NCBI GenBank assembly: GCA_000442015.1
Contig: KE560729.1
Location: 1 to 49,722 of the forward strand
DNA from: Rozella allomycis CSF55
Lineage: Eukaryota
Direction: 5' to 3'
DNA: 49,722 bases
Shown: positions 2,761-49,722 of the stretch, piece by piece
How positions within the stretch are numbered: position 1 is the first letter of the stretch
Layout: every line of letters begins with the position of its first letter
Translations under genes and position numbers: made by a program
The notes under the pieces: model-generated
What the model was told of the DNA's origin: nothing
Databases searched by the model: none
The model's input: only the letters and a program-made list of their open reading frames with translations

Positions 2761-3523
2761 TTTCTTTACTTCAATTGATGAAAGGAAACTGCTGCTAAAG
2801 CTTTGGATGCTCATAACAAGGAATTTCTAGGCGCACGAATTCATGTTGCATTTTCAAATCCTCCCAAACAGAAGAAAGTATCCGTTAATCAAGAAGTAGA
2901 AAGCAAGCAACTTACAATGATGGTTCCTCACTCGGCAAGAAAAAAGACCTCAGCAACATTAAACTCTCCAAAATCTAATGATGATTTCCGTAGCATGTTA
3001 TATAATTCTAAATAAATTAACTTAAATTTTGTAATCTACTTTGCTACATTGAATTTCTGTTTTTGTCAATTCTATTCATAGAAATGAAGGGGCTAATTAT
3101 AGATTGCGACCAATGAAATTTGAAACAATCTATATTTAAGAAAACACGAGGTAGCCCCTTATCCTCATGAAACTAGAGACCATGCGTCTGTTAATTTCTT
3201 TCGTGCTTGGTACAGTTTTTGTCAACGCGACCACTAGTACCGCCAGCAACAACAACTCAACCAGTGCATCTGTTTCTCTAACAGCACCAACATCTACCAT
3301 CACAGGTACATCCCCCACTTCATCGACATCTCCCACTTCATCAACGGCCACAACTCTACCAGCATCATGCAAGGTCAAATCAATCAGAAAGGAAATTCGT
3401 GATCTCACTCCCAGCGAACTCAAGCAGTTCACCGATGCCATCCTCAAAATCAACACACAAGGCATAGTGGATACATTTGCCTACCTCCACGACACGCAAT
3501 CGCACAAGATCCACAACACAGCA
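2761..3523 (+). repeat. Near-identical copy of ~1984-2759 (SART3 3' end + tyrosinase 5' end) joined at N2760; probable haplotype overlap
   Basis: Direct duplication abutting a single N, with scattered SNPs and small in-frame indels. The first tyrosinase copy (2398-2759) stops exactly at the N. Confidence 0.85.
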
Positions 3524-4408
3524 ATGTTCCTTCCATGGCACCGACACTTTATCAACAAATTCGAGCAGGAGCTGCGCAAAGTGAATGCCAACGTCACACT
3601 TCCATACTGGGACTGGTCCCTCGATGCAGCGCATCCCGAAAAGAGCCCCATCCTCTCCTCCAAGTACATGGGCAGCTCGTCGCAGGGCGGGTGTATTCCC
3701 GACGGACCATTCAAAAACTTTACCGTCAAGGGAAACTGTGTCAAGCGAACGTTTAATCCGAATCCGCCAAAAACAATAACGACGTTCCATTCAACGTCCC
3801 TGCTCGGTGAGCTGATCAGAAAGAACTATACGAGCTACGATGAATTCAGAAGCGCGATTGAAGGATCTCCACATGGTGTGCCGCATACGTTTATTGGCGG
3901 GGACATGTCTACGATGCGATCTCCAGCGGATCCCTTGTTCTACTTGCATCATGCTTTTATTGACAAACTGTGGAATGATTTCCAGCAGGAAAATAACAAA
4001 CAGTTTCTGAACAAGTATGTGTCCGATCCAAAGTCTGCTCAATTGATCGGATATACGGGTGTTAATGTTGCCGATGTTTTGAACCTGGAGAGCATGTGTG
4101 TCCAGTATGTTATGGCTGGCGCGATTGTTGATTCACCGGATTCTATTACATGGAATGTTCCTGCACCAGCACCGTTGGATGATGACTGGCTCAAGATTAA
4201 CCACATGAACTCTACGGAAGTGAGGAAACAGGAAACTGAGATTAAGCAAATGCAAAATAAGGTTATTGAAGATGGAAAGAAGGGAAATATTCCACCTGCA
4301 CCTGGTTATAACGACACGTACAAAAAAGATGAAACTAACAGCGGAGTGTCTTTTGAAACATCATTAGGGTTAGCTCTATTGATTGGATTTGTGCTAAACT
4401 TATTCTAA
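3167..4408 (+). CDS. Secreted tyrosinase (type-3 copper protein) with Ser/Thr-rich linker and hydrophobic, GPI-signal-like C-terminus; intronless
   Basis: Signal peptide; CuA H..H..FLPWHR; LPYWDW; CuB PHGVPH..DPLFYLHH; C-terminal SLGLALLIGFVLNLF. Confidence 0.92.
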   Translation: MKLETMRLLISFVLGTVFVNATTSTASNNNSTSASVSLTAPTSTITGTSPTSSTSPTSSTATTLPASCKVKSIRKEIRDLTPSELKQFTDAILKINTQGIVDTFAYLHDTQSHKIHNTAMFLPWHRHFINKFEQELRKVNANVTLPYWDWSLDAAHPEKSPILSSKYMGSSSQGGCIPDGPFKNFTVKGNCVKRTFNPNPPKTITTFHSTSLLGELIRKNYTSYDEFRSAIEGSPHGVPHTFIGGDMSTMRSPADPLFYLHHAFIDKLWNDFQQENNKQFLNKYVSDPKSAQLIGYTGVNVADVLNLESMCVQYVMAGAIVDSPDSITWNVPAPAPLDDDWLKINHMNSTEVRKQETEIKQMQNKVIEDGKKGNIPPAPGYNDTYKKDETNSGVSFETSLGLALLIGFVLNLF

Positions 4409-17086: not shown

Positions 17087-19357
17087 ATGAAGAGATCGTA
17101 TAGAGAGTTTGGTAAATAATAACAAAAAGCAATAACAAGGAAAGCGAGCACCTCGAGAACGCGAGGAAGAAACAAAATCCCCCGAAGAACAGATAAAATC
17201 TCTCATATATGTGCTAGGAGACAAGGTAAAAAGACACAAAAATATATAAAGGTTCCATTATCAGAGCTATTTGAGCAAATCGATTCACTAGTGAATGTTG
17301 TAACTAGAGACTACGAAGAGCACCGAAAAGTAATATTGAGGACAATAGAAGCGTGTGGAAGCCAGTTGCCGCACAAGTTGAATATATATGCATTGTTTGT
17401 ATCAGCATTGAATGCCAAGAATCAGGAGATTGGAGCAGAGATAGCAAAGATGTTGACTGATGCGCTGGAATTTCATTTGTCGGATGGAAAATGGAGAGAG
17501 TTTCAAGTTTTGTTGAGATTTATTGGAGAGTTGGCGGATTTAGGGTTTTTGCCGCTGGTTGCGTATAGTAGTATTGTTGATGAGTTGGTGAGTATTTTGA
17601 AGAGTGACAAGAAGCAGAATTTGAAGGATATGTTTGCGATGACGATTATGAAGTGTTTGGTGTATACGGGGAGGTATTTGATGGAGGAGGATGTTGAAAA
17701 GTATATGGAAGCCATTAAAGAGTATATTGGTGGAAGGGTTATTAATGATTTTGCGTATAAAATGTTCCATTCGGGAGATTTGGAACAAAGGGACTCTTTG
17801 GAAGATCTTTATCAAAGGCTTTGCGTGTTTAAGGAAGATCGATGGTTTAGTAAAATTTTGACGATTATTGATGATTCTCCGTTTAGTGATTTGTTGATGA
17901 ATCAAACTCAAGTATGAAATTGAAAACAAAAAGAGTAGCATGAGTTGAGACCATTGAGGATTGAAGCTATAGAAGTGTCTGGGAATATACCTTTTCAAGA
18001 GAAAGTGTTTTATTTATTAGACTCTGAAGAGGCGATGGTAAATATTGTTTAGTTTGGTGATTTAAGTATCAAAAAGATTCATACCCAGAGAAAGAGTCAA
18101 TGGATCGATGGATTCTGATGGACATTGTTTGGAACATTTGTCATTTCTTTGAAATAAATCATAAAGAATGTGTTCAAGCGTTAATGTTGATTGATGTTCC
18201 AGCGAATGTTAACAGGGCGATTGTAGAAACCATTTTTATTAATCTTTTATCAAACCCTTCATTTAAAATTGCTTATTATGTGACATTGTTGTGTGATTTG
18301 TGTAAATCTTATCCACGAATAATCCCAAAAGACATTGGAAAGATTCTATTTACTGTTTTTGAACAGATGGATGCATGGGAGTTGGATTATTATGCATTGG
18401 ATAGATTTTCTTCATGGTTTGCACTTCATTTATCAAATTTTAATTTAAAATGGCCATGGGATGATTGGAAAGAAATTATTGAATCTGAAAATGGAAATTC
18501 TAGACAAAAGTTATTTATAGAACAAACAATTTCAAAATTACTTTCTTTATTGTATGTCAACAGAGTCAAAGCAGCTCTTCCTGATTTTCTTCACGTTTTC
18601 ATTCCTTCATCTTTAATGACCTTTGATGGAGATGAAACTTTAATTGGAATGTTAAAAGAAAAGAAATCAAAAGAAGAAATAAACGAATATCTTTCAAATT
18701 GCGAAAATTCTTTAGAAAAGTTAATTCACTCCATTTGGAAATTTGGTTCAAAATCTTTTACTTTTATTTTAATTGCAATCGAAAGGTATTTTTTATTTTT
18801 TTCTTTAATAGATCTTTGCCAATTTTAAAAGATTTAGTTTCAACAGATCAAGATCAAATTGAAATTCTTAAATTAACTTTGGAATTTTTCCAAAATAATC
18901 ATCAAGTAAAAAATATTTTCAATTTTAATTCTGATGGCTGAAATTTCAGTTTCTAAGCTTATTAGCTACAATCTAGTTCATCCTAAAGTTTTGATGGATT
19001 TTATCTTTTCCAATCAACAACCTTTAAATCAATATTGGATTTGGAGAATAATCGACGCTGCATTGTCAAAGTCTGTCGATAGAAACATTTATCTTGAAAG
19101 TAATATATTTATATTCTTTTCATTCAATAGAAGAAAAAGGAATGAAAGTAGATTATTTTGAAAATGTAATTTCTGCTTTCATTAAACATTCTTTTGCACA
19201 AGATATGACATTGGATTATCCTATTGGAATCCTACGCAAAGTAAATCTTTACTATTTTAATCATTTATAGTACATCAATCATGTTTCTCCTAGTATCCTT
19301 GTAGACAATTTACCAGAGGACATTTCCTCAAAGTTTATCAATCTAATAAATGTTTAA
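17087..19357 (+). CDS. NCBP1: Nuclear cap-binding protein subunit 1 (CBP80/Sto1)
   Basis: Basic N-terminus, QLPHKLNIYA, DRFSSWFALHLSNFNLKWPWDDW, GSKSFTF, NNHQMAEISVSKL; 8 introns including one GT-TG. Confidence 0.92.
18906..18933 (+). other. Non-canonical GT-TG intron (28 nt) in NCBP1
   Basis: CAT CAA|gtaaaaaatattttcaattttaattctg|ATG GCT gives NNHQ-MAEISVSKL, colinear with CBP80 NHPQMIAVLVDKM. The next AG is out of phase. Confidence 0.75.
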
Positions 19358-30299: not shown

Positions 30300-31344
30300 A
30301 TGGACGAATTTCTTTCCCTTTTAAACGATAAAAATATTTACGAAGCGCATCAACATTTCATATCTACATGTATGAAGTAAAATTATTGTTATACATACAT
30401 GCAGATTGGAAAGAAAGAAAAAATACCAAGAGTCATTCAACTTGATGATCGAAGGATTAAAGGCTTTAATTGAAAAGAAAGAACATCAAAGTGCCAAAGA
30501 TATTTTTATTCGTATATTTACAATGGCAAAGAAATATGATTACAATATCAGTGCGTTTNCTTGATGATCGAAGGATTAAAAGCTTTAATTGAAAAGAAAG
30601 AACATCAAAGTGCCAAAGATATTTTTATTCGTATATTTACAATGGCAAAGAAATATGATTACAATATCAGTGCGTTTGAAAACGATCTCGTAAATGCAGC
30701 ATCCGCTCTTCCTGCTTCTATAGATGTTACGAATTATCTCTTATCGTAAAACACGTTTTTTAATATTTTCTAGGATATTTAAGACAAACGAGGCATATAA
30801 AACTATTGCACAGTCTTGGATTAACGGTAATATTATCTAAATTTACCATACTTTAGCGGCGGATTTTAAGAAAGCGTCAGAAGCTATAGTTAATGTTAAG
30901 GATTCATATAATTTGCTTGCACCGCATATTGACTCTATAGAAATTGATTTAATTATCGAAATAATCCTCAAGTACTTACTTTTTGTTGACTTTAGAAGGT
31001 ATACATGCAATCAAAATTTGAATGATGCATACATGCTTACTAGGCTAGCACTAAGCAAGTTTCCTATTAACGATACGTTGTCGTCTGATGACATGGTACT
31101 ATCATCAAGTAGCCAGCCATTGCTGAACTTTGCTCAATTATTTTTGCTTTGCATTGAAAGAAATAATGTTGCTCAATTAAAATCAGTGATAAATCATTAC
31201 AGCCAAGAAATTGAAAATAAGAAATGGAAGGCTTTAGTTACTTCTATCGGTCACAAGTACTTTTCAATCAATTTATTTCCAAACGCAGCTAATCAAGTTA
31301 ATCCACTGGCTAATATAATGAGCCAGCTTTTGTCTGGTAAATAA
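30300..31344 (+). CDS. GET4: Golgi-to-ER traffic protein 4 (contains an N-flanked ~118-nt assembly duplication)
   Basis: IYEAHQ, PLLNFAQLFL, IGHKYF and C-terminal NPLANIMSQLL. Confidence 0.8.
30441..30678 (+). repeat. ~118-nt direct duplication flanking N30559 inside GET4
   Basis: Near-identical copies on either side of the N. Confidence 0.85.
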
Positions 31345-31412
31345 AATATAGAATATTTATTTTTTCCTAGTTCGCTTGCATACCGTTGACCGTTGTCAAG
31401 TTGAAAAATATC

Positions 31413-34400
31413 ATGAAATCAAATGAGAGAATTAATCAATTTAAAGTTTACTCGGGTATATCAGGCATTACTTCAATGTCATTAATGGCACTAAATGAGG
31501 TCCAAAATACTCATAGCGTAGAATCGAATATAAACTTGGATGAAAGGAATGAATTGCAGCAAGTACGAGCAGAAGTAGAAGAAGTTATGTTCCCTGAATT
31601 CCCATTTGTACCAAGAAAAAACGATGTTAGATCTTACACCAATTTTCAAAGTAAAAAAGTCAAAGAAGTTACTGACATTATCAAGGAAATTGAATCCAAG
31701 AAGAAATCTATTGAAGACGACATAATTGTTTCACAGTTGGGACAATCGCCTGGAAAAGATGTATTGGGATTCTTAGATATAAAAAGTCTCGAAGAAGAAC
31801 TGATACCAGAAGATTTCCGGCCAAAATACATAAAGCTGGATTCTGAAGATGAGACACCAGAACCGAATTTTGAAATTCTATCAGAATCCGATATAGACAA
31901 TGGATTTCTTCCTCTCATTGATCAGCATCGAATACCTATAGGATCTGATTTGTCTAACGGATTTAAGAATTTCAAACCACCTGTTCAAGTTCAAAAAATT
32001 AACTTATCACACAAAGTTACAGCAAGAAGAAGTACTATTGCTATTACTAAACGGCAGTTAACGAGATTAAATTCATCAATATCCATATCTGAGAGAATAG
32101 AGAGATTGAGATCAAGTGGAGACTTTGGGTCAGCCATTTTTGAGGCCATGAATGTTTCATATGTTCCTAAGCGATCAAAAATACTAGAAGTCATGCATGG
32201 ACACTATGAAGAGCGACAAGATAAAAATAAGAGAATCTTTATGGAAAAGCTATCGGAATATGAAAAAATAAAGACATCAATGCCTATGTTAAAGTTGGAT
32301 GATAAAACAATCAAGGAAATACAAGTACCAAAGCGTTATTCCAAATATTAGAATTATTTGAAGCCAAACACTGATGAGATTATTGAAACCAGCAAGATTG
32401 ATTATGAAAACTATGATGTTCCTGGGACGCCGCCCTCATCCCCTGTTGTGGACGAAGAGACGTTGGATGATAATGATGCCTCTACCGTTTCGGATAAAAA
32501 GATCACTAAAAATAACACAGTAAAAAGCAATATTAATATATAATGATCAAAATTGTTCCAGCACATAGAACTGACAAAAATGATGACTCAAACGGGAAGG
32601 ATTTCACGTAATTTTGAGATTAATTTGTTTACAGTGTTAAAGAGTTCTTAATCGCAAATGGCAAAGTAATTGAATCTTTGCCCCCTTTCATTGCATTCAA
32701 ACAAAAGAATATACAAAAATGGGGCCCATTACTTTGTATCATCCAAGACATGGAAAAGCTCTTAACAAAATACTCGGTTCCGCTTTGCCAAGTCGACTGT
32801 AAAAAGTTGGAGATGCTAGCAGCCAGATTCTGGATGGAGAAACCAACAGACAAACATTTGATTTCTACGTTTGTAAATGCAAATCAAGTAGAAACAATAT
32901 AATTGTTTTACAAGGTCGAAAAAATAATCCGTACACCTGGCAATCTTTACAAATCTAATGACCGAGATAATAACGCTCTGCTTAAAATCCAAGCGACTTG
33001 GAGAATGTACAAGTGTAGACAATGGTATTTGGATCAGCTCAATAGAAAATCTGCAGCTGCTATATTTTTAAGATATTTCAACGCAATTAAAAATAAGAGA
33101 TATTCGCGCGAGCGTTTGGAGGTACCCCAATTTACGCATCCTGACCCAGCAAAGGAAAGCGGAAATTAGGACAGTTTATAAATCTGTTCAAGCAGAGTAT
33201 TACGCGGGGAATAATTTTTACTTGAAATACGAGTAATTAGCTTGCATTGTTTTAGAAAGCCTCTTATTTCATTTTATTGTTCCGCCTAAAAGCGCCCGAC
33301 AGCAAACACACTTTGAAGAATTCTGCAGGGATTGTATTGTGCCGTATACATCTATGTAAATTAATCCTGTAATAGTTATAGATTGACTGATCTTATTGAC
33401 AAGGCGAAAAAGCTCGTCATTATTTGCAGTTTTGAGATTCCAGAGTCTATATTGAGTATCTACAGAAATATATTACGTAAGCTAATCCGGCGAGTTTTTT
33501 AGAATATCATGGTATAAAAATGGATGAAAATGTCATATGGATAATGCCAGAAACGCTAATGTATTACCCTAAATATTCTAGTGTTATTGCTGCGATGGAG
33601 ACAAGTGATAGAACTGTGAAAAAGATATGCGAATTAGCAAATTCTGTTTCTAATAAGTTAGCATTAACCGGGAAATTGTCTACAAAGGAAGCAAATCTCG
33701 TGAATGTAAATAATCCGTATTAAAATTGTTAGTCTATTGATGTACCGTTCTTTGCACCAGACGTCTATTTAAATCCTTTGTCAAATAGAGTACAAGTGAT
33801 GGAATTTTTGCAAAAACATGGACTTCCAACCTTACCTTATCAAATATGCACACCCAAAACAGAAGAGGATATCTTTGCATGCTTAAATGAAATAAGAGAG
33901 AAGCATCCAAATTATCCCAGGTAAATTGAAAATTTGACTAATAGTTGATGGTGTTTGAAGATTAATGACTTTGATAGTTGTGGCATCGCATACATCAGTA
34001 ATTGTTCCAATCACATTAAACTTAGATTCGTCATCTTTGGATGAAAAGATATACTTAGATATGGCGTTTTGTCATATAAAATTTAACAATTTAAGAGAAT
34101 ATTTGATTGCAAGTGGGAAGGACCCGCTCATAATTCAAGCCAGTCCTCACTTGTTTGGTGGTTTGGCTTGTGCATTGTTTCTGGTCATTTATCCGGACAA
34201 AAATTTTAAAATTGAAGGCATGGTTGATCTTATTTTCAAGGAACCATTCGATGCCATTGGTTTCAGAGCGCCATCGTCTGCTACGATACCTTTGGAATTT
34301 ATAGAGAAATTATGCTTGTCCTTATATGAAGAGGGTATAATTGGGTCTGTCACCGTGGAGTTTGTTCTTAAAGAAACATCTAGTGATCCATTCGACACAG

Positions 34401-35707
34401 AATTTGTTATAGTGGACATTAAACCATATTTGACAATGAATCATGCGGATTTTAACTTTTGTTTATCGATTTTATTTGCCAAGTTCTACGACAATAAAAT
34501 TGAATCATATTATGATCCCAACAAGAAAAAGTCGACAGTTTATCTTAATAGAGTTAACAAATTGGATAAGGTAACCTTTTTCTTGTATAATAGAAAGTCT
34601 TTATTAAAAAAGAAAGGAGATGATCAAGATGCAAACATTTATTTCATCTTCATAAAGAATTTAATGCATTCATATTTACAGCTTACCAACTCGTCTGTGA
34701 ATCACTCGATCATGTCAGCAAATGGATTAAGTTTGGAACAAAATGTAAAACTTTACACGCCAATATTTTAGAGCAGACATGGTGTGTTTTTAAGACCTAC
34801 AACAGATCCCAAAAAGTATGACTTGCTTTGCTCGACAGGCGGGATGCTAGATTGTTATACCAAAACTGTTCTGGCTCTTAAAACCTTGCATTATATATAC
34901 TCTTCGGAACTGCATCCCGGAGAATCAAACTTAATGGACCTTTACGTCGCCCTACAATTTTCCTATCAAATAAAGTCCTGTACAAACAGCCCACCAGTTG
35001 AATTAGAAAGAAGCAAAAGTTCAGCGACAAGCACACCAAAGGTTACTCTGTCAAGAAAATCATCGGCAATTGGAGAGTCAAGTTTAAAACGCTCAGGAAT
35101 TGGTAGCTCTTTAAAGAAGGTTCAATTAATGAATAACTATTTTCACGATATTGCAGAGATTCTTTTCGCGATAGACAAGAATGAAGATTCATCACAGATA
35201 ATGAAAAACGAGACGCAATATCAGAAAGTATCAGAATTTTGGAAGTCAGTAAATGTCCTCAAGAGCAAAGTCAAGGAATTAAAAAAGGAAAAGAAATCAG
35301 ATAAAAAGATGAGTCTGGAAGTAGAAGAAATTTCAATAGCGCCTCGATTATCAGTGAGTATGGCTAGAAGAAGAACATCAATGAACCCCGAGTCAGAAAA
35401 ACTTCATGGATCAATAGTAAAATGGCTTGTTGAAGAAGATCAAAACGATATCTACGACAGGTTGCCTAAAATAAATAAAAATACGTCGATAGTCGCGTCT
35501 GTAATACCAGAGACACATGATGACTCTGCAGAATCAGAAAAGCCTTTATCGTTTAGAGAAATACCTCAAAGAAGAGGATCTATAATAGATGAATCTCAGT
35601 TAACTTCTAGACGGACATCCTCTATTCGTGACGGAGCTAATGAGTTTACAAAGACTACAGTTGTAAGAAGAAAGAGCTTGTCCTCTGTGTCATCGCTTAA
35701 AGAATAG
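31413..35707 (+). CDS. IQCH: IQ motif-containing protein H-like (flagellar-associated)
   Basis: WGPLLCIIQDMEKLLTKYSVP, IQ motif KIQATWRMY, RWCLKIND..GIAY and IIGSVTVEF; ~13 introns, two of them non-AG. Confidence 0.75.
32520..32545 (+). other. Probable GT-TG intron (26 nt) in IQCH-like gene
   Basis: AAC ACA|gtaaaaagcaatattaatatataatg|ATC AAA. Read-through stops, and the first in-phase AG would need an 80-nt intron. Confidence 0.55.
33921..33947 (+). other. Non-canonical GT-TG intron (27 nt) in IQCH-like gene
   Basis: CCC AG|gtaaattgaaaatttgactaatagttg|A TGG gives PRWCLK. Using the TAG at nt 24 gives AGT TGA (stop). Confidence 0.75.
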
Positions 35708-35732
35708 ATTAGAATAAAGGCATATTATTGAT

Positions 35733-37193
35733 TTATTTATTGATTATATAGGCGTATACACCAACACTGATGGATAAAAGGGTCAATATTCCAAGGCCTT
35801 GATATGGGTTGATCTAATTGACGTGCTAACTAATTCATACTTGATATCCAGATTGGGTTTTCAACAATTTCACTTGATTTCTTAATTCAAATTCATTTTT
35901 CTCCAAAGAAGATATTTTGTTCTTGTATTCTTCTAAAAGTTTATCTTTTAGATCCTCATTGACTTTAAGCTTGGAAATGTCTTCTTGGGAACTCTTATAT
36001 TTCTCATCAAACTCATCTATGTTATAAAAGAATTTGGGTTATTACTGTTTATCTGTTTCATAGTATTTTTTAAGAGAATCAATTCTTTTTCGCTGGCTTC
36101 CAATTTCACAACTGCATCATGATATTGTTTTTGAAATTTCTCAATTGATTTAGACAATTCTTCAGAAGATTTTTTGATGGTTTCTTCATGCTTGGCTTTA
36201 AGTGATTCAATTTCTTTATTCAGAACTAAAACTTGAGCTTTGAATTTCTCTGAATTCTTCTTTTCTTCAGATGCATTGTTCGTTAATTTAGAGATATTTG
36301 CTTTTAGAGACTCAATTTCAGATTCCAAACTTTTTTTCGTGATCTGTTGCCATTGCAATTATTTGTTACTTGGGATTGGGAAAGTTTATCTTTAAGATCT
36401 TTGTTCTCCTTGACTAATTTTTGATTCTCTTTTTCAGTTCCGCTGTACTTTTTAATTTCTTCCTTCAATGTCTTCAATTCATCTATGAATGAATCTTTTT
36501 TAATCGTGGCTAATTTATCATCTTCAATCACAACAGATGCGTCATTAAGAATAGTCTTTAATGTCCCTTCCAATTCTCCAAGTTTCTGGTCATGTTCATT
36601 TAATTTTTTAATTTGTTCTGATGATATTACGTCGTCTTTCATTTCTACATTCTTTGCTGGGATTATGTGAACAACGCAATCTATTCTACTATAAAGAACT
36701 ATCTTTATTAACGCAATAAATTACGCGATGATTCTTCTTCTTGATAAATGTCTACACCCAGAGTAAGCTTATCTCCTTCTTTCAACTCTACAGGTTCACT
36801 TTCTTCACCTTCTTGACTCAATCGATTTCCATTAAGAAATGTCCCATTGCTAGATTTAGTATCCTTTATGAATATCTATCATGGATTAATAATATTTTCA
36901 TTTACTTTTCCATGTTCATCGGCAGATATCAAGGCATGGTTCCTTGAAAGCACCTTGTTGTCAAAATATCCATTCTCTGATGTCGGTGCTGTCTTTGAAG
37001 ATATTTGTCGTCCAAGAACAATCGGCTGCGATAGTACAAGAACCTTTTCTTCAAATGAATTGTTTGTTGATTCCAAAATTACTGCGGGATTGGTAGGTGC
37101 GCTAGAGTATGTAAACGTTTTATTTTGCTTTTTGGATCCTGATAAACTGCATTTATTCTTCATACCCTTTTTCTTGCCAACGTCAGTGTCCAT
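35733..37193 (-). CDS. FHA + coiled-coil tail-anchored STRIPAK protein (SLMAP/Far9/Far10-like)
   Basis: LGRQ..NGYFDNKVLSRNHA, DTKSSNGTFLN, long coiled coil, C-terminal TM GLGILTLLSISVGVYAYII. Confidence 0.88.
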
Positions 37194-38906: not shown

Positions 38907-39486
38907 ATGTCAAGAAAGAAATCAACAAGCAATGTGAGTGAAGGTAATAGAATATAAAAAGAAAAAAGCAGAATCCGATGTATTTGTGTACAAGGAGAAT
39001 GAACAATGGAGATACGGTAAATCAAAGTAGATTATGTGAGATAGAGGGAAAGTATACAGTGAGTACGGGAGAAGTAATGAGAAATGGAATGGGGAAGATG
39101 TGTTATGATGGATATGTGTATGAAGGAGAATGGCTGAATGATATGATGAATGGAACAGGTACAATGTGCATTAAAATGATACAGGAACGCTGGTGTATCC
39201 GAATGGAGAGAGTTACAAGGTAGATTTCAGTAGTTAAATTAAGTAGGGCGAGTTTAAAGAAAATAAGTTTGAGGGAAAAGGAAAGTATGTGTGGCCTAAT
39301 GGTACTTTAGTTGAATTAGTTTAATGTAGGAATTGTGTATGAGGGGGAATGGAAGGATGGCAAGTAAAGTGATGGATGATGTGAAATAGAATGGATGGCA
39401 TTGGAGTGTTGACAATGGAAGGATGTAGATGGACGGGTCCATTTGAGCAAGGAGTTGCCAAGAATTTAAAAATACTGTATAAATAA
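38907..39486 (+). CDS. MORN2: MORN repeat protein, MORN2-like (7 exons)
   Basis: YEGEWLNDMMNGTGTLVYPNGESYKGEFKENKFEGKGKYVWPNGIVYEGEW..WTGPF..NLK; six 26-28 nt introns. Confidence 0.8.
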
Positions 39487-39504
39487 AAGAAAGAGTGAAA
39501 TTGT

Positions 39505-39609
39505 AAATAAAGACTATTAAAATAAAGACTATTAAAATAAAGACTATTAAAATAAAGACTATTAAAATAACGAGTATCAAAATGAAGAGCTTTAAAATAC
39601 AGACTAATA
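39505..39609 (+). repeat. 15-bp minisatellite (AAATAAAGACTATTA): 4 perfect + ~3 degenerate copies
   Basis: Read directly from the sequence; lies between the convergent MORN2 and UBA1 stop codons. Confidence 0.95.
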
Positions 39610-39640
39610 AAGACTTTTAACCGATGATATCATAAATTTA

Positions 39641-42600
39641 TTAAGGTCTGATTCTTATTTTAACATATGGCACTTCAACATCATCATCGTTAGCATCATT
39701 AACACAAACTTCCAGAATGATATCTTTAACATGTGCTGGAATAGGTGTTTTCGTGATAGATTCAACCAGTTGAGAGATGGGAATGTTCATTCTTTCTTCC
39801 AACTTCTTTTTGTTCATAAAGAACGAGTAGAGCATGCTAACGTTGCAAGAGACCATAGTGATTGATAGACTGTGTTGAGACTTGAAAATGTCAATTAGCT
39901 GAGAAAGAGTAATGTCACCGTTGATGTCGAATCTGTCCCATAGAGTCCATTCAATGTCGTTGTATTTCAACTTTGGAGCAGCGATTGGTTCAGAGAATGT
40001 GAATAGAGGCAAAGAAAGATTAATGAAGCCATTCTTGTAATCATCGATCTTTCTGTTCCCATCGATAATCTTTAAAAGTTCTAAACAAATTAAACCAGAG
40101 ACTAGTGCAGTTGTTGTAGCGATTGCAGGAATGATTTTGCCAGCGATGAATTTAGTTTTGTGCTTGTCAGCTGGTGGAATATCATAACAAGAAGCTCTTA
40201 GATTGGAAGTTGCTGTGATGAAATCAATGTGAAAGTTTGAATCATCGTCTTTTTCAAAATCAATTCTTTGCATTTTATAGCCAGGTAGTGAATTAGGTAA
40301 AGGTAAAGATTTAATTAAAGAATCAACGTCAATGTTTAGATTAACATTTTCATTTGAATTTTCATTATTTTCAACTTGAATTTTAACTCCACTTTTTGGA
40401 ATAAATTCTTCAACTTTAATTTTATTAACAATTTCTTTAAAATAGTTTAAATCTAGAGATCCTTTTAAACCAAAATTTTGAGCTCTTAAATTTGAAGCAA
40501 AAATGATAAAATCTAAATGATCCTTGTTATTTAAATCAAACTTTAATGGCTTTGGACATCTCTTGGGTCCAGACCAAAAAGGAGTCCCACTTGAATTTAA
40601 TGAATCTGGTGGGAAATTAAACAACAATTGTTTTATATTATTACTAAAATATTCTTCAAATTTATTTCTTGCCCAAATCACACATTGTTCAAAATTAATT
40701 GGCTTTTCACTAACAAGACAAGATTCCAATCCCACAACTGCTTCCTTTAACACATTATTACCTATCAAGTATTACTAGTGGAAGATTACCTAGTTAATCT
40801 CACATATCACTACTTTTACCTTGCTTGGTCAAGTTTTCTAGATAATCATTGAATGATAAATATTGATTAACATTCTCAGCTAGATTTGTAAATAACCCTT
40901 CAAAGATATCTCTTCCCCATTGAATGGTATGTTCAATTTGATTAGGAAAATTCTTCAGAGTACACATTGGAATTGATTTCTCTGGTGGATCTTGAGATGA
41001 TGAATATGATTCAGTTAGAAATGGTACCACAACCTGTGTATTCCCCTTTGTTCCCAATGTTCCACTTTCAAGCAATGGTTTTCTATAATAAACACATCTT
41101 CTATCAACATATTTTCTTGCATCAACATTATCCAATGCATTCGTTACAACATCCAATCCCTCAAAAAATTCATCATTAAAAATATTCTCAGTTTCAATGC
41201 CAACTCTATCTTGGAAACACTCAATCTTAATATCCTTATTCATCTCCTTCACTGCCTTGGCTGCAGTCATCGATTTAGACTTTGAAACATCCCACGGTCT
41301 AAACAAGAATTGTCTATTCAAATTGCTCTTCTCAATGGAATCCATATCTGTTAAATAAATCAATCCTTCCTTTCCACTGCCAATCCCCATCATTCCCCAA
41401 TTCTTCAACATCTCACATCCAATAGCCCCAGATCCAACCAGAAACGCTTTAACATTCTCAACCTTTTCATGAAACTTTCTTCCATACAAATTAATCATTG
41501 GTGAATATCTATCATTCTCACTAGAACACTCTTCTTCATTCAACTCATAATTCTTTGGCAATGATTCAATTGAATCAAAATAGAAATATTGATAAATTGG
41601 ATAAAATTTTCCACTGCAACATTTTAATACTTCTTGCGCTACAATCCCACCTAGAAATCCACTCATGGCTGAAATATATCCCCTCGATTCAAAACTCATC
41701 TCTTTTATTATCCCTTGCTCTATTTCAACACTCATCCCCTCTTCTTTAATCATACTCTCAACAATTCTTATCAATTCTTTAGCATCTTCTTCATTTCTTG
41801 GTCTAGGCAATCTCTTATTCTCTTCTTCATATTTCTTCAATCCAATAAACCCTAAATGAATCATCATCGGTCTATCAAATTTAGAAAAATCAGAAATCAC
41901 AAACTCTGGATCTTTAAAACTTTCTCTAAACGATTTCTACTCTAACACATAAATTCTCCTTACAAATGATATCGTCTTTGGCTGCTTCACTTGTTGGAAA
42001 ATACCCCCTGATACATACTCTGACAAATTCCTTGTATCCCCAATACTAAACGTAAACGGTCCATGAACCTTCACTCTCCTAGGCTCACACCCATTCAACT
42101 CTTGCATCCCCTTAACCTCAGAAAACGTCACATAATCGCCATCCTCCAATCCATGTCTACTCTCCTCCAAACACGTCACTATCCCATCAGCCTCCCTACT
42201 CACACCAGCAACCATCCCGCTCTCAGCATCCTTGCCATTCGTATCAATAACCTCAAACTCTCTTCCAAAATCACAAAACGTAAATCTTTCTCACAAAAAT
42301 TCACCCCCTTACCCAAACAGCCCCCGCACATCAGCAGCAATAAACCCTATCCCACGCGCATGCGTATACTCATTAATCTCAACAAGCTCCCGCAAACTGC
42401 CCTCTGTCAACACAACACACTGGAACCTCTCAACCATCTCCACAGAAAACTCACCATCCAACACATGCACTGGCACATAGCTGTTCAACTCGGCCAACTT
42501 GCCCACACTCGCTTCATCCCTCCTCTTGCCATAATCACTCTCGTGCAGGAAAAACTTTACTGCGTCTATTCATCCCTTACCTGCGCCGCCAAATCCTCTG

Positions 42601-42872
42601 GCTTCACTACTCCCTTGTCATATATCGTCACCGATTTCACTCCAGCCAACACCACGTTCTTTGCTACACTCCATTCACACACTCTATTTTACCTAGTTAA
42701 ACAAATATTCCTAGTCTTACCTATCTCTATTCCTAGTCCCTTCAACCCGATTATCAAAACATCAGATTGACTCATCTTGGACATTGCCTCATGGCCAAGC
42801 ACATATCTATTTCTATACTATTCTATATACGTACAGCTGGCGTGAATATAAACTCTCATCAATAGTCGTCAT
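39641..42872 (-). CDS. UBA1: Ubiquitin-activating enzyme E1
   Basis: [35 protein letters not shown], catalytic [34 protein letters not shown]. Confidence 0.97.
40776..40789 (-). other. 14-nt micro-exon of UBA1 between 30- and 31-nt introns
   Basis: Gives KQ-GNLPL-EAV, colinear with E1 GTQPLEV. Confidence 0.75.
42664..42720 (-). other. 57-nt UBA1 intron made of two abutting unit introns (28 + 29 nt) with a zero-length exon
   Basis: ATA G|gtaagac...ttaactag|gtaaaat...gagtgtag|CA AAG. The flanks give the conserved GIEIAKNV with no residue to spare. Confidence 0.75.
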
Positions 42873-43028
42873 TCTACTACTAGGGTTATTTCAAGGGTTT
42901 TCAGAAAAATGGGAAATTAAGGGTACCAAATGACATGAAAGAAGATTACAGTTTAAAATATATTATGTTTATTTTTAATTATTAATTGATAGTATAAGCA
43001 AAATAAAAAGTATTTATTCAAATTAAAA

Positions 43029-45884
43029 TTATGCAAAAAAGTCAGTCTCAATGTCAGTCAACTCACCCTTGTCAAACATCNCTCAATATCAGTCAACTCA
43101 CCCTTGTCAAACATCTCCCAAAACTTTTCATTAAAAACAAAATCATGCTGGTTAGTAACCTCATCAAAATTAACATTAAACCATCTAGGTTTCCACACAA
43201 TACCCAACTCTTCCATTTCTTTACGCTTACTTCTCTGCTTCTCTTCCAATCGCTGCTTCTCCTCCTCAGCTTCAACAATGTTGCCCTCTTCCATCTTTCT
43301 TTGATCTGGTCTCAACCTAGAATCAGTAGCAGGGAGTTTGTTTTGAATGTCGGGCGTTATTTCATTCAGCTGCATTGTAAACTGAGAGAATCCGTAATAT
43401 TCAGCATTCTCGGGTGGAAATGGATTCGTTTGCCATAATAACTCTAATTTGTCCGAGTCAATTTGTTTATAGAATGAATCATTCCATTTGCCCTTTAAAT
43501 TACAAACAATCTTTTTCTCTGACTCATAAATTGTTCCTTTAACTTCGCAAGCTAAAATCTTTGTAAAATATAAGTATTTACATGAGCCTTTAANAAACTA
43601 AAATATTTACATGAGCCTTTAAAATAACCACTTTCAATGAATTCTAATTCACAAGATTCATTTGTCTTGTGATTCAAAATTGTACAGTTTCCAACATGCT
43701 CTAAATATTTCGTTCCAGCTAATAAATTCTTAACCTTTGACTTAACTTTTGTCCATGTAAAGTAGTCAAGAGTATCAAAGAATTTACAATGGATTGTTCC
43801 CATATTTATCAATTCCAAACTTTTGCCCCAAAATGTTGTTTTTGGTTGAATCGATCCCCAAATCTTAAACTTTGGATGAGAAACGTTAAAGGCTACAATC
43901 ACAGGGCGATGGCTCACTTTCTCTGCAAAATACCTCAAATTTAAATCTGGTCGATCTAAAACAAACGTCTCTCCTAGCAAGGGATTAAACGGCTTTCGTG
44001 TTGTTCTATTAAATGATGAAGAATATGAACTCACAACAAAGGCTGCTATATAGGCTAACCTTTGAATAGAATCACTAGCTTCTATTGCCTTGAATATTAG
44101 GCTTAGATATTCAAAATCTTCGCTAATTCTTTGCAAGAGACTCAATGGTTCATTAGTTGATATCGGCATAGATATCTGTGACATGTCCCTATCCTACCAT
44201 TACTTAAAAGCTATTACTTGCCCATGTTCCTTCTCAGAATCCCAAGTATAGAAATCTCTCCTCCACATATTTTAGATGGTAATACTTTTCTTCTGGATAT
44301 CAATCCATTTTCAATAATCTGATTATTCTCTTTAAAACTTTCATTAGAGTCTGAATCATCATCATCATCTACATCTTGTATCTTAATTTCTGAAATATCA
44401 GAAATCTCATCAAAATAATCTTCTTGTTTGTCTTCAGCGTCATAAAACACTTCATCCATTGTAAATGAAGATGCCTTTGATTGAGATCTATTTCGTTTCT
44501 CCACAGAGAGCCTATGCTCATGATTCAGATCATCCATTAAATCCAAGTATTCATTTTCCAAACGCTCCTTTTTCATTTTACAAACACTCGCATAATTTTG
44601 AAAACTCAATTCTTGCTGAGTCATAATCGCTGAACATTTCGCAAAACAACCCTCAAAGGTTTCAGAAATTTCGTCAATGTCATTTTTACTTACCACCTTT
44701 TCTTTCATTGTCTTTTTTGTCTGCTTTATTTTATCTGCAATTTCAAAATGCATTTTATTTAGATTTTCATTTTCAGCCTTAAACTGTACCAAAAATTTCT
44801 CCTCTTCAGTCATTCCATTTTCTTTGTCGTTAATCATTGATTCTTGACTAGAACTTTTTCTATACGATTTTGAATATCTTGAAATATTGATAGCTCGACT
44901 CCATTTTGTATAATCTTCGGCAGAAACAGCCCTTAACTGAAGTAGTAATGTCCCAGAGTCAATTATTATCATGTTATTCTCGGGGATTCTACTAACTGCA
45001 CAAGTCTTTAAATCCACTGATCCCCTACAATAACTTTAGAAATATCACATAGTCCAATTACCTGTTGGGATCAGAAAAATAGGATAAAACTTCTCCTTCC
45101 AATTGGAACCATCGTTTAGCAAATCCTTGCAGTTTTTTATTCTTCTTTTTCAACAACCAACCACTACAATCAGGTTCATTTTTAATGACAAGATCATTTA
45201 ATGAGTAACCATAAACTTCTTACCATTATTCTTTGCCAAAGTCACAAAAAATGTTAATCTCTTGGAGGTATTAATAGAAAACGAATTGTCAAAATATAAA
45301 ACATACACACCCGGCATTGGAACTTTATAACTTCCCTTGATTGTAAACTTTGCAGAGTCATATCGCGCCAATGTAGACACACAAATCAAATCTTCATCAA
45401 CGTCAGAAATAATAGGTCCATCCATTGAGGAAACTATTAAGTTATTAAAATAACACTACCTGAATCTTTCCTACTGGAATTAGAACCTACTTTAACTATA
45501 ACACCTACACATACTTGCTCTCAATCGAACAACAGGATGTGATTTATCAGCATCACCCTCTTCATTTCCAATTTTTTGATTCTTTGAAAACTTTCTCGCT
45601 CGTCCTGCAACATTACTCGAGCTACTGCCTAGCTTTGCAGGCGGCTGGATCGTAAAGTCCTTCAAACTGGAAAGAAAAAATTGTTCCAATTCTTTATCAT
45701 TGTTCTCCTTAAAATATTGATCGTACTCTCCTTGGCCTAGCACATAACTGGACTTGCGATAATATAGACCGAACGCTATGCCATTCTTGCGGGTAGAAAA
45801 ATTCCAATATAATGTCAGATCTTTACTGTCCGCTGTTACGTAGTATTTAAAGCAGTCTCTTTTCGGAACATCTACCTCCTGCAT
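43029..45884 (-). CDS. OSH3: Oxysterol-binding protein, Osh3-like (GOLD, PH, FFAT, ORD)
   Basis: GOLD (YVLYFDNSFSINTSK), PH (GWLLKKKNKKLQGFAKRWF), FFAT EVFYDAED, ORD RKPFNPLLGETF, EKVSHRP, TDSRLRPDQR. Confidence 0.88.
45195..45223 (-). other. Non-canonical GT-TG intron (29 nt) in OSH3-like gene
   Basis: AAT G|gtaagaagtttatggttactcattaaatg|AT CTT GTC. There is no phase-1 AG before the PH motif GWLLKK. Confidence 0.7.
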
Positions 45885-46044
45885 CTGTTTACGAAATTTC
45901 TAGATCGAAATGACAATCATGATTTAGGTGGTGAATGGAAAAGGCGCTGGCATTTTAAAGACTTTAGTTCTAGTAATCTCGTGTTCGATTTCCAGTGGAT
46001 GCGGTTTAGGGCCTGCTAACCCCTGTAAGACAGGGGTAATTTAA

Positions 46045-46235
46045 TCTTTTTTAAATATATACAATTAATTCAACGTATTTATTAAGGATGAGGGATCCAC
46101 ATCGTCAAAATCACCAAGGAGTAGAACCCTGCCTCACCCTAAAAACCCCAGAAAATTCGGAAACATGGGTGGGGATCGAATCATGCACCTAGACGTCCGG
46201 AAGCATCATAGTTTGCCACTAAACCACCGATCATC
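46045..46235 (-). mobile_element. Putative tRNA-derived SINE-like element
   Basis: A-box TGGTTTAGTGG (46226-46216) and B-box-like GATTCGATCCC (46182-46172), 33 nt apart. No acceptor stem. A GC-richer body is followed by AATAAA and an AT tail. Confidence 0.5.
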
Positions 46236-46319
46236 AAAAAATGTATTTCCAAATTTTTTTAGGAAATTTGTTTCCGTTTACTGGCGGACCAAAATCATCT
46301 CCGCCGCAAAAGCCGAACA

Positions 46320-47130
46320 TGTACGCTATCTCTCCTTTGGTACCATTTGCAATTGTGTCTACAAGTTTCGTTATAATATTATATATTATTATTGCTAATG
46401 GTCGTTCCTTCGAGAAGAAAACTATTTTCAATATACTTGAGCATTTATACTCGCCTTGCACGATCCAGGAGGTGATGGAATTTTGCAAGACACTTACGAG
46501 GTTCCAACAATACTTTTGTAATGCTTTGAATATCATCAAACAAACAGATTAATACCATTTTGGGTTTGATGATAAAACTATCGGGCTACGTCTTGCTGTC
46601 CGTCTGACTTTTTGGACGTCCAATGGAGGTAAAAGAGATGTTGCTGCAATGTTTGGGTATTTTAAAATCTACCACAAATGGATACATACATCAAATATTA
46701 AAATTATACTATTTTTGGTACAAGACCATATTAAACATTCTTCTCAAGATAATAATCAGAAAGAATGAACTTTGGGATTTGAACAATGGAAAGGTTTTCC
46801 GAACGTGGTCGGCGCAGTCGATGAAATAGTGATACCTACTCCTCCACATGGATGGTTTTGTAGAAAAATCTTCCAGCTTTTAATGTCATGGCTATACGTG
46901 GTTCGCAAAAATATTGTTATTGTATATCTTTGCGATCTGTAAGCCACAATGATCAATTCTTTTGACGTCGAAGTCATTTGGATCACAAGCAATGTCTTTA
47001 ATGCCAACGGGATACCATATTTTAGGGGATTCTAGACACGCCCTTAAATCATTTTTTATTACTCCATATGATCATGAAAATGCCACCCCGGAACACAATA
47101 ATAATTACATTAACTCAGCCACATGAATTA
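46320..47130 (+). pseudogene. Decayed PIF/Harbinger (HARBI1-like) DDE transposase
   Basis: Frameshifted fragments RSRR*W, LRLAVRLTFW, GILKSTT, GFPNVVGAVD, FCRK and HILGDSRHALKSFFITPY, in the expected order. Confidence 0.8.
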
Positions 47131-47760: not shown

Positions 47761-49722
47761 ATGCTTGATTGTTTTTCAGACATTGCCTTTTTAACCTTAT
47801 TTTATCGACAAAGTTACCGAAAAGATGTCGCATTGCAAAGCCTAAAAATTGAACAGACGAAATATAGCTCGTATCTTTAGTATTAGACAATGGTATAAAA
47901 ATTAGGTAATTAATCAGCAATTGATAATTTATTTTATATACAGATATAGATATATACATCTATATGCAATGTTGCTTTAACGTAAAGATAATGCTTGTTG
48001 GTGTTGACGACTGTACATAATGAATATTAATTTTGTTTTGTGGTTACGATGTAATTTGACGTCTTCGAAATGAAACATTGGGGGGCATTACTAGCAGCCG
48101 CCGGCATTCCTTCTCTAAGATATGTCTAGCAAAAGTGTACTCACACTGCCAGCCTATTATTATGTGCGTTAGTCAAGTGTGGGACAAAACAGCAGCGGTT
48201 GAGCAAAAGATATCACGACGCCATGGTCGGAGTGTATCGGGTGTACTGCGAACAAAGACATTTATTGTCAAAAAATGTTTTAACACGCGATAAAAGTGGC
48301 TTGAAGCCACAGGGAGGTTCTCTGTAACTTTTCAGAACGACAGGACTGTGCCTGTCATCGCCTGAATTCTGCGAAGATGCGTTTTACGGAAAGTGAGCCC
48401 CTTGGCATCATAAACGCAATCAATTATTATCTGCATTGTGTATCATTAAACAAGCAAGCAAGAAAGTTTCTCCGCACCACTAGTTGCGGCCTGTCAAAAG
48501 AACTATTTCTCTTTGGGCCTCAACAGTTGCAGATTTTTGGCATGTTGAGCAAATACCATTTTACCTCAAATTCACACTCACTTCAAGGGATTTACATCGT
48601 TGACCAGGGGGGTTGTCGAGTGGTGTGTGTTTCGCTGTGTATGTAACCAGTTTTTTGTTTCAGATTCTTCTCAATTGTGTTTATGAACTTTAAACACCCA
48701 ATATACCAAGTAATATGTATTTAGATTCCCTATAGTAAAGTTAGTTGTGGAGATAAGGGTGGCAGAAGGAATGTTGGATACTTGGATTGCTCATTAATAT
48801 CGCAACATTTGTGTTTATGACTCTACTTCCATTAGTAAATTGTTGTTTCATCTACTTTATTAGCGTTTTAGAGCCATTTGAATCGCTTGTGGTTTGAGTC
48901 CCATAGTGTAGCAAATGTAAAAAGTTTACAATCGAATTTATAATTATATTTATTAAAAGAAAAAGTTTTTTAGACATGTATTTATTAGAACAAAATAATG
49001 GAGATTTTTGGGATTCGTAGGAGGAATTCGAAATCGGTAAACGAAGGTCCCGAGCGAAGCTGATGAACTTCTAAAACAACTAGCACATAATTATAACCTC
49101 CCCGTGACCCCGTCTTTGCTAGATTTGTTACCAACCACCAATCATAATTAACTTCTGTAATCTGTTAAATGACCAATAAGAGACTGGCGCAAAAGCGACG
49201 GATTCCAAACAACCTTGACATAATGCTCGCGCTTGTGTTTTATGTATTATGAAAACATTTTTGGCGATAGTATGATGCACCAGCCAAATTGGAGAAAGAT
49301 GAATAAAATGTCTATTTTAAGTTGTTGCCCAATATTTTTATAATGGGCAATATATTACCAATATCCCCATTATTGATTGGCAGGTTTCTCCCAATGCTAA
49401 TTATTGATTGCAAGGTCCCCATGATATTGCAATTATTTTTTGTTTATCTCTGCATCAATTCATTGGTATTAAAAACATCAACTGCTGCCTTCTGCTTGCA
49501 CAAGTTGACGAATTCTTGAGCAATGAGATCACCATTCTTAGTCTTTGTGTACAGTGTTAATACATGTCCACGGAAAGTTTGTCTTTCTGTGTCTATTATA
49601 TCTGTTTTTTTTAGCGGTACATTAATACTAAGTCAATATTGGTCAACTCATGCACGTGCCGTCATATTGCCTATTTAGATATTAAATTTAAAATCATACA
49701 ATAGAACCAATATGTACGGTTC

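Follow-up and report, generated by a model that had tools for sequence, protein, structure and literature searches.

Abutting mini-introns of Rozella allomycis UBA1 as candidates for recursive splicing through zero-length exons

The DNA analysed here, referred to below as the window, is a 49,722-nucleotide stretch from Rozella allomycis CSF55. The gene with which we are mainly concerned occupies 39641–42872 on its minus strand, running from an ATG at 42872–42870 to a TAA at 39643–39641, and has seven exons; it was modelled by tblastn with fungal UBA1 (ubiquitin-activating enzyme E1) proteins under the standard genetic code, together with a reading of the frames. One exon of 378 aa is 98% identical to a protein named 'ubiquitin-activating enzyme E1 [Rozella allomycis CSF55]', the top match among longer proteins, and among proteins of similar length the best matches are UBA1 from fungi and animals, at 54–64% identity. 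Similarity to fungal UBA1 is colinear in tblastn, with 59–60% identity over residues 2–851 and 14–772. The Pfam sets attached to the UBA1 matches, which are precomputed for those proteins and are not the window's own, contain PF00899, PF16190, PF16191, PF10585 and PF09358, which we take to be ThiF, E1_FCCH, E1_4HB, UBA_E1_SCCH and E1_UFD respectively. Judged by this full-length colinear similarity to E1 enzymes, the gene is a UBA1. Under the standard code there are zero in-frame stops in the approximately 1000 codons of its exons, and the frame closes with TAA TAA after ...VKIRIRP. The two halves of the gene are different in composition: the coding strand of the 5' half (41001–42500) is strongly G-rich and C-poor, with a plus-strand GC skew of −0.49 to −0.63 at a GC content of 0.47 or less, and its codon usage differs from that of the AT-rich 3' half. 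Similarly skewed patches are also present at 17501–18000 and 39001–39500.

Introns 3 (42555–42580; 26 nt, GTAAGG...TAAAG), 4 (42286–42312; 27 nt, GTAAGG...GAAAG) and 5 (41937–41963; 27 nt, GTAAGG...AGTAG) of UBA1, all on the minus strand, are short GT..AG introns, the last of them validated by homology. Intron 1 (42803–42830, minus strand; 28 nt) has GT..AT termini; its removal joins ...SRQLY to VLGHEAM, and no GT-AG placement of this intron restores the frame. Either the AT end is a true non-canonical 3' site or it stems from a difference between alleles or from the assembly. A second 3' end that seems to lack AG, unless a base is in error, occurs at about 45198–45223 (minus strand) in a gene resembling oxysterol-binding proteins, where an exon of the GOLD domain (...FFVTLAKNN) is in frame with the PH exon (DLVIKNEPDCSGWLLKKK...) only if 26 nt that begin with GTAAGA and end with AA are left out.

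Intron 2 of UBA1 (42720–42664, minus strand) is 57 nt long and consists of gtaagactaggaatatttgtttaactag followed by gtaaaatagagtgtgtgaatggagtgtag, that is, of 28 + 29 nt. Unit a (42693–42720; 28 nt, GTAAGA...TTAACTAG) and unit b (42664–42692; 29 nt, GTAAAA...GTGTAG) both begin with GTAA and end with TAG, and they are joined as CTAG|GTAAA at 42693|42692. The original prediction had described just such a 57-nt intron at 42664–42720, divided by a central TAG|GTAAA into GT..AG units of 28 nt and 29 nt, and this description is borne out on the minus strand; the units were also said to be of unrelated sequence, and by eye we see no evident similarity between them. Upstream of the intron the protein ends with ...GLKGLGIEI, and downstream it resumes with AKNV. 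Schizosaccharomyces pombe Uba1 (4ii2/5um6) reads GLGVEIAKNV and has no gap at this position, and the fungal UBA1 proteins aligned by tblastn and the R. allomycis CSF55 UBA1 (P0121) are likewise gap-free between GIEI and AKNV. Colinearity of GIEIAKNV in S. pombe Uba1 and in P0121 thus leaves zero residues for an exon between the units, as had been claimed, and the further claim that read-through would stop also holds, the 57 nt being 19 codons that remain in frame and meet a TAA, which is a stop in the standard code. Intron 2 therefore holds two complete GT..AG mini-intron units and a zero-length exon, with no coding space between them.

The same arrangement occurs a second time in the gene. 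Intron 6 (40762–40819, minus strand) is 58 nt long and reads GTAAAAGTAGTGATATGTGAGATTAACTAG|GTAATCTTCCACTAGTAATACTTGATAG, or 30 + 28 nt, with the join CTAG|GTAAT at 40790|40789; unit a (40790–40819; 30 nt) is GTAAAA...TTAACTAG and unit b (40762–40789; 28 nt) is GTAATC...TTGATAG. At both of these composite introns, then, an AG directly abuts a GT inside the intervening sequence. The exon upstream of intron 6 ends with ...ENLTKQG, and we aligned the products of five alternative splicings at this place with 44 UBA1 homologues (43 from other species together with P0121). The spacing from KQ to LV in the 43 is mostly 14 residues, with a conserved [KR][ED] after the fourth, and two of them are off by one or two residues. 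Removal of the 58 nt gives 15 residues between KQ and LV and keeps the KE, and removal of 52, 49, 70 or 82 nt gives 17, 18, 11 or 7 residues respectively. The public CSF55 protein reads ...KQGKSTVVGLES..., which matches the 70-nt splicing and is without the seven residues NNVLKEA. These residues, with their conserved KE, are supported by the 43 homologues, and the public Rozella UBA1 model is probably in error beside intron 6, a likely annotation error that it is of practical use to flag. For the 58-nt stretch as for the 57-nt stretch, protein colinearity predicts that the whole is absent from the mature mRNA.

Because of this second composite, 42664–42720 is not the sole long intron, and the statement that it is the only one in the window above about 32 nt does not stand; besides the 58-nt composite there are probable introns of 81, 52 and 40 nt, described below. 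That the arrangement recurs within UBA1 also speaks for two stacked introns and against an AG|GT that arose by chance.

The four units are all 28–30 nt long and begin with GTAA. Their quality as introns was scored with a position model derived from 50 short introns of the window (51 minus one assembly duplicate), for which the leave-one-out median is 2.54; a set of 1387 decoys has a mean of −5.41. Unit a of intron 2 scores 2.78, which exceeds the values of 58% of the 50 short introns and is equalled by 1.3% of the decoys, and the units of intron 6 score 2.74 (unit a) and 1.28 (unit b), equalled by 1.4% and 3.5% of the decoys. Unit b of intron 2 scores −1.06, a value that 96% of the short introns exceed and that 11% of the decoys also attain. 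The homology-validated intron at 41937–41963 (27 nt) comes close to this value at −0.40, its low score arising because introns in the G-rich part of UBA1 are less AT-rich. The branch point showed no definable consensus, with YTRAY in only 16 of the 50 short introns, and RNA folding of the two composites, with and without their flanks, gave no signal relative to shuffled sequences (z = +1.28 and −0.33).

How readily a central AG|GT might arise by chance was addressed in two ways. When the interior of each composite was shuffled, success being an AG|GTA that leaves two units of 26–32 nt, it was reached in 2.1% of shuffles for the 57-nt intron (0.021) and in 1.2% for the 58-nt intron (0.012), and with the pooled AT-rich composition of the short introns in 0.004 for each of them, these P values being conditional on the outer boundaries and the 57-nt case having been picked in the original prediction for its midpoint. 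Separately, both strands of the window were scanned for two abutting GTA..AG units of 24–32 nt, each scoring at least −1.1 on the intron model. The scan returned four rows, all of them at the two UBA1 composites and nowhere else; 100 sequences simulated with a first-order Markov model gave 0.35 rows on average and never more than 3, none of the 100 reaching 4. The central AG|GTA at the composites is thus unlikely by chance and is non-random.

The introns of the window as a whole were predicted with an ad hoc Viterbi (dynamic-programming) gene finder of our own, which was trained, scored codons by log-odds, allowed GT..AG introns and gave all intron lengths of 15–200 nt the same prior. With this flat prior, 51 of the 83 predicted introns are 26–32 nt long (13, 12, 13, 4, 5, 3 and 1 for 26 to 32 nt respectively) and the others are scattered singly over 15–198 nt, with no second length peak among the 83. 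A variant of the finder that was confined to units of 20–34 nt yielded, for genes with 200 aa or more, 51 short introns, and broke several genes; all 51 begin with GTA, towards which the model had been trained. The flat-prior finder skips weak exons, so that it reports false UBA1 introns of 155 nt and 84 nt, which are real short introns plus skipped exons, and the gene models outside UBA1 depend on an ad hoc finder with clear errors.

Predictions of 33–100 nt were inspected singly. For each of those of 37, 42, 44, 47, 59 and 77 nt there is an alternative of 26–32 nt that stays in frame, and they were not counted as long introns; those of 38 nt, of 59 nt (43552–43610) and several of more than 100 nt coincide with assembly joins at single Ns; two others, of 42 nt (40037–40078) and 65 nt, are false models, and some predictions fall within false antisense models. 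Credible introns of at least 48 nt in the window are four in number, with lengths of 52, 57, 58 and 81 nt, and three of these (57, 58 and 81 nt) can be decomposed fully into GT..AG units. The 52-nt intron (18906–18957) lies in a gene with MIF4G domains that resembles NCBP1, where it seems to be needed for an open frame, and an intron of 40 nt (33921–33960) seems necessary for an open frame as well. Neither the 52-nt nor the 40-nt intron contains an internal AG|GT, and length alone therefore probably does not force two steps; removal of about 50–60 nt in one step is probably possible in Rozella. The original prediction had argued that a spliceosome restricted to 26–32 nt would have to remove intron 2 in two steps, and in view of these two introns the premise of such a restriction is weakened and not established.

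The 81-nt predicted intron (45434–45514, minus strand) lies in the GOLD_2 domain of the GOLD/PH/oxysterol-binding-protein gene already mentioned (about 43058–45884), and has boundaries set by open-frame logic only. It splits exactly into GT..AG units of 28 + 27 + 26 nt, which shuffled sequences attain at P = 0.0019. Its middle unit begins with GTT and scores −6.16, a value like those of the decoys. We regard the case for a third composite here as suggestive.

On the basis of these observations we lean, with some reserve, towards a model for intron 2 in which each unit would be removed as an intron in its own right, by two consecutive reactions. Each unit of about 28 nt would be recognised across its own length, by intron definition. 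The outer GTAAGA would pair with the nearest good 3' site, namely the central TAG 28 nt away, and the central GTAAAA would pair with the 3' site 29 nt further on. Two spliceosomes would hardly fit together on 57 nt, and for this reason the reactions are likely to be consecutive. Whichever unit went first, the GIEI|AKNV junction would come out the same, since the splice sites of the other unit would retain their context: exon 2 ends with ...ATAG and unit a with ...CTAG. The join would act as a zero-length exon. Composite intron 6, with its units of 30 + 28 nt, would work likewise, unit b and exon 7 both beginning with GTAAT. As to origin, a new mini-intron may have been gained at an existing AG|GT junction, which is a perfect proto-splice site. 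A more sweeping version of this proposal, which we offer tentatively and consider unlikely as a whole, is that the spliceosome of Rozella would be tuned to introns of about 27 nt, and that longer introns would mostly be concatenated mini-introns, so that intron lengths would cluster near 28, 57 and 82 nt. On this view each unit would be spliced out on its own by way of zero-length exons, and new units would be gained preferentially at AG|GT junctions.

The alternative that fares best is that intron 2 is an ordinary single intron of 57 nt, removed in one reaction from the outer GT to the outer AG, in which the central AG|GTAA goes unused and is either a relic of the intron's origin, for instance by gain of a second mini-intron where the old splice junction lay, or a product of chance. 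Length would permit this, given the probable single introns of 52 nt and 40 nt that lack an AG|GT, and unit b makes a poor intron by its score of −1.06; the public CSF55 protein model, moreover, treats the stretch simply as removed. Nothing would select for the two-step route, as the mRNA is the same either way: the one-step and two-step products are identical, and so selection does not distinguish between the routes. However, under intron definition over about 27 nt the outer GTAAGA has its nearest good 3' site in the central TAG, 28 nt away and thus at the modal distance, and we find no RNA fold that would bring the outer sites together (z = +1.28 and −0.33). The arrangement is also present twice in UBA1 and perhaps a third time in the gene next door, with chance values of 0.021, 0.012 and 0.0019. 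Removal in one step is in our view possible, and we are doubtful of it.

It is very improbable that the 57 nt, or half of them, are an assembly artefact that is not in the real genome. The window does have flaws elsewhere, in the form of single-N joins with duplicated flanks (1040, 1488, 30559 and 43081) and of a 35-nt skip at 43046–43082, and misassembly had been named as a concern with the original prediction. At 42664–42720, however, there is no N and no repeat, and DNA contigs from other runs cross the stretch without gaps. In run X1 a contig (record 5, 39985–42890) crosses both composites with 0 gaps; in run X5 two contigs (record 21, 39541–42234, and record 22, 42205–42916) cross one composite each, again with 0 gaps; and in run X2 a contig (record 14, 40535–41601) crosses the 58-nt composite. 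No joint or indel at either composite is seen among the rows listed for the DNA contigs of the four runs, of which the best-covering may be the window's own source sample. Run X7 has zero cover across 40375–42249.

We give next to no credence to a translated insertion of 19 residues, or to a ciliate-like germline element (with TAA and TAG read as glutamine, and an eliminated sequence bounded by TA), for although the frame in code table 6 is open through the insert and 29 nt could on paper be placed so as to have TA..TA ends, UBA1 fits the standard code (zero in-frame TAA or TAG in its exons under table 1, and an end at TAA TAA, by which we also reject table 6 and an eliminated element), its closest proteins are fungal with the nearest named one from Rozella, the DNA contigs show no excised form, and an insert at this point would break up the helix that comes after the nucleotide-binding GxGxxG motif of the E1 fold.

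Whether relatives share an intron at this place was explored by a scan of metagenomes, which returned 80 UBA1 loci, none of more than 67% identity. The N-terminus is reached by 61 of the loci, and 43 of these have one unbroken tblastn segment across residues 30–55, although such a segment could hide a short in-frame intron. All five of the loci with a break that were inspected have an intron of 15–44 nt between G36 and L37, which is 4–5 codons upstream of the place where Rozella has its own. At GIEI|AKNV itself no intron is apparent in the metagenome UBA1 loci (61 reaching the N-terminus, five of them inspected closely).

The stepwise removal that we favour for the composites has its closest parallel in recursive splicing through zero-length exons, or ratchet points, which was defined in long Drosophila (Ubx) and human introns. 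The Rozella composites are alike in that the 3' site of one unit abuts the 5' site of the next, and in that protein colinearity predicts an mRNA without the whole stretch. The Drosophila process is treated in bioRxiv 10.1101/006163. The original prediction placed recursive splicing mostly in very long animal introns; spliceosome profiling has also revealed it in S. pombe (SPNCRNA.445, with a 336-nt intron; two instances) and in Cryptococcus neoformans (BOT1, 375 nt = 210 + 165) (bioRxiv 10.1101/226894, 10.1101/224170). By these fungal cases, recursive splicing is not limited to giant introns. The Rozella composites differ from them in size, being 57–58 nt and thus about six times shorter than the smallest of the fungal cases documented. 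They also differ from the known cases in that their units are of minimum size (28–30 nt), that introns of the genome they sit in hardly vary in size, and that stepwise removal is here something we infer.

A second point of comparison is provided by the stwintrons of fungi (Flipphi, Fekete, Scazzocchio), in which an internal intron interrupts the donor, the branch point or the acceptor of an external one; for complex fungal intervening sequences the same source describes consecutive reactions that proceed by intron definition with the smallest possible unit first (PMC7138796). The likeness is that of a fungal intervening sequence with more than one intron unit. However, the order of removal of a stwintron is fixed, whereas the Rozella units merely abut and either order would work. 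We reject a stwintron here: neither the outer GTAAGA nor the outer TAG is broken up, none of the splice elements has an intron inside it, and the units lie end to end.

Genomes with tiny introns make a third comparison, examples being Paramecium at about 25 nt, Stentor at 15–16 nt and the chlorarachniophyte nucleomorphs at 18–21 nt. The Rozella window resembles these in its sharp length peak, which lies at 26–32 nt. Rozella introns are called 'short (~30 nt)' in PMC6349667, and PMC8042348 puts the lowest fungal median intron length at 29 bp, the species behind the figure being given in its supplement. In the literature searched, outside which lie the original Rozella genome paper and its supplementary intron tables, we found no account of mini-introns that are stacked or abut one another, whether in Rozella or in other tiny-intron genomes.

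Taking these comparisons together, the UBA1 composites may be read as a miniature form of the already documented recursive splicing through zero-length exons. From the sequence evidence, a recursive-splicing reading of the composites is plausible, and the arrangement itself is wider than first reported. Should the units be spliced singly, recursive splicing would extend down to the smallest size of spliceosomal introns, and would do so in a fungal lineage that diverged early and is related to microsporidia; a spliceosome adapted to one length would then be treating longer inserts as several introns. The broader reading, of longer introns as concatenated mini-introns, would if true supply the smallest recursive splicing units known and in addition a visible footprint of intron gain. 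The arrangement has a bearing on intron gain in any case: two unrelated mini-introns placed exactly end to end, twice in UBA1, are what would be expected from insertion at an existing AG|GT junction.

Several further features of the window and of its assembly were observed. Single Ns at 1040, 1488, 30559, 43081 and 43594 each lie in the middle of an exact two-copy duplication of 35–165 nt (890–1191, 1325–1652, 30441–30677, 43047–43115 and 43552–43610 respectively). These duplications look like unmerged contig overlaps. The contigs of all four DNA runs skip 35 nt at 43046–43082, one of the duplicated joins, and one run omits 29 nt at 43564. Such joins give rise to false 'long introns' in gene prediction. 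Directly upstream of the UBA1 start codon, at 42916–42991, the contigs of X1, X2 and X5 skip 74 nt, which would be either a haplotype indel or another assembly difference.

In the region from 31000 to 36500 alternative bases are seen at many places, making up about one third of the summed DNA contig depth; this suggests that the sequenced material contains more than one haplotype, which fits the 2% difference in protein sequence from the named CSF55 UBA1. In all four runs the summed depth of two regions, 46000–46624 and 48500–49124, is 10–50 times that of the sequence around them, and alternative joints are numerous there; nothing was found in them at Rfam gathering scores, and no tRNA. They are repeated elements. 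Finally, a 145-nt sequence is present twice, at 2267–2411 and 3036–3180 (minus strand), about 770 nt apart and beside a gene with a tyrosinase domain (3155–4408, plus strand), and the two copies suggest a local duplication.
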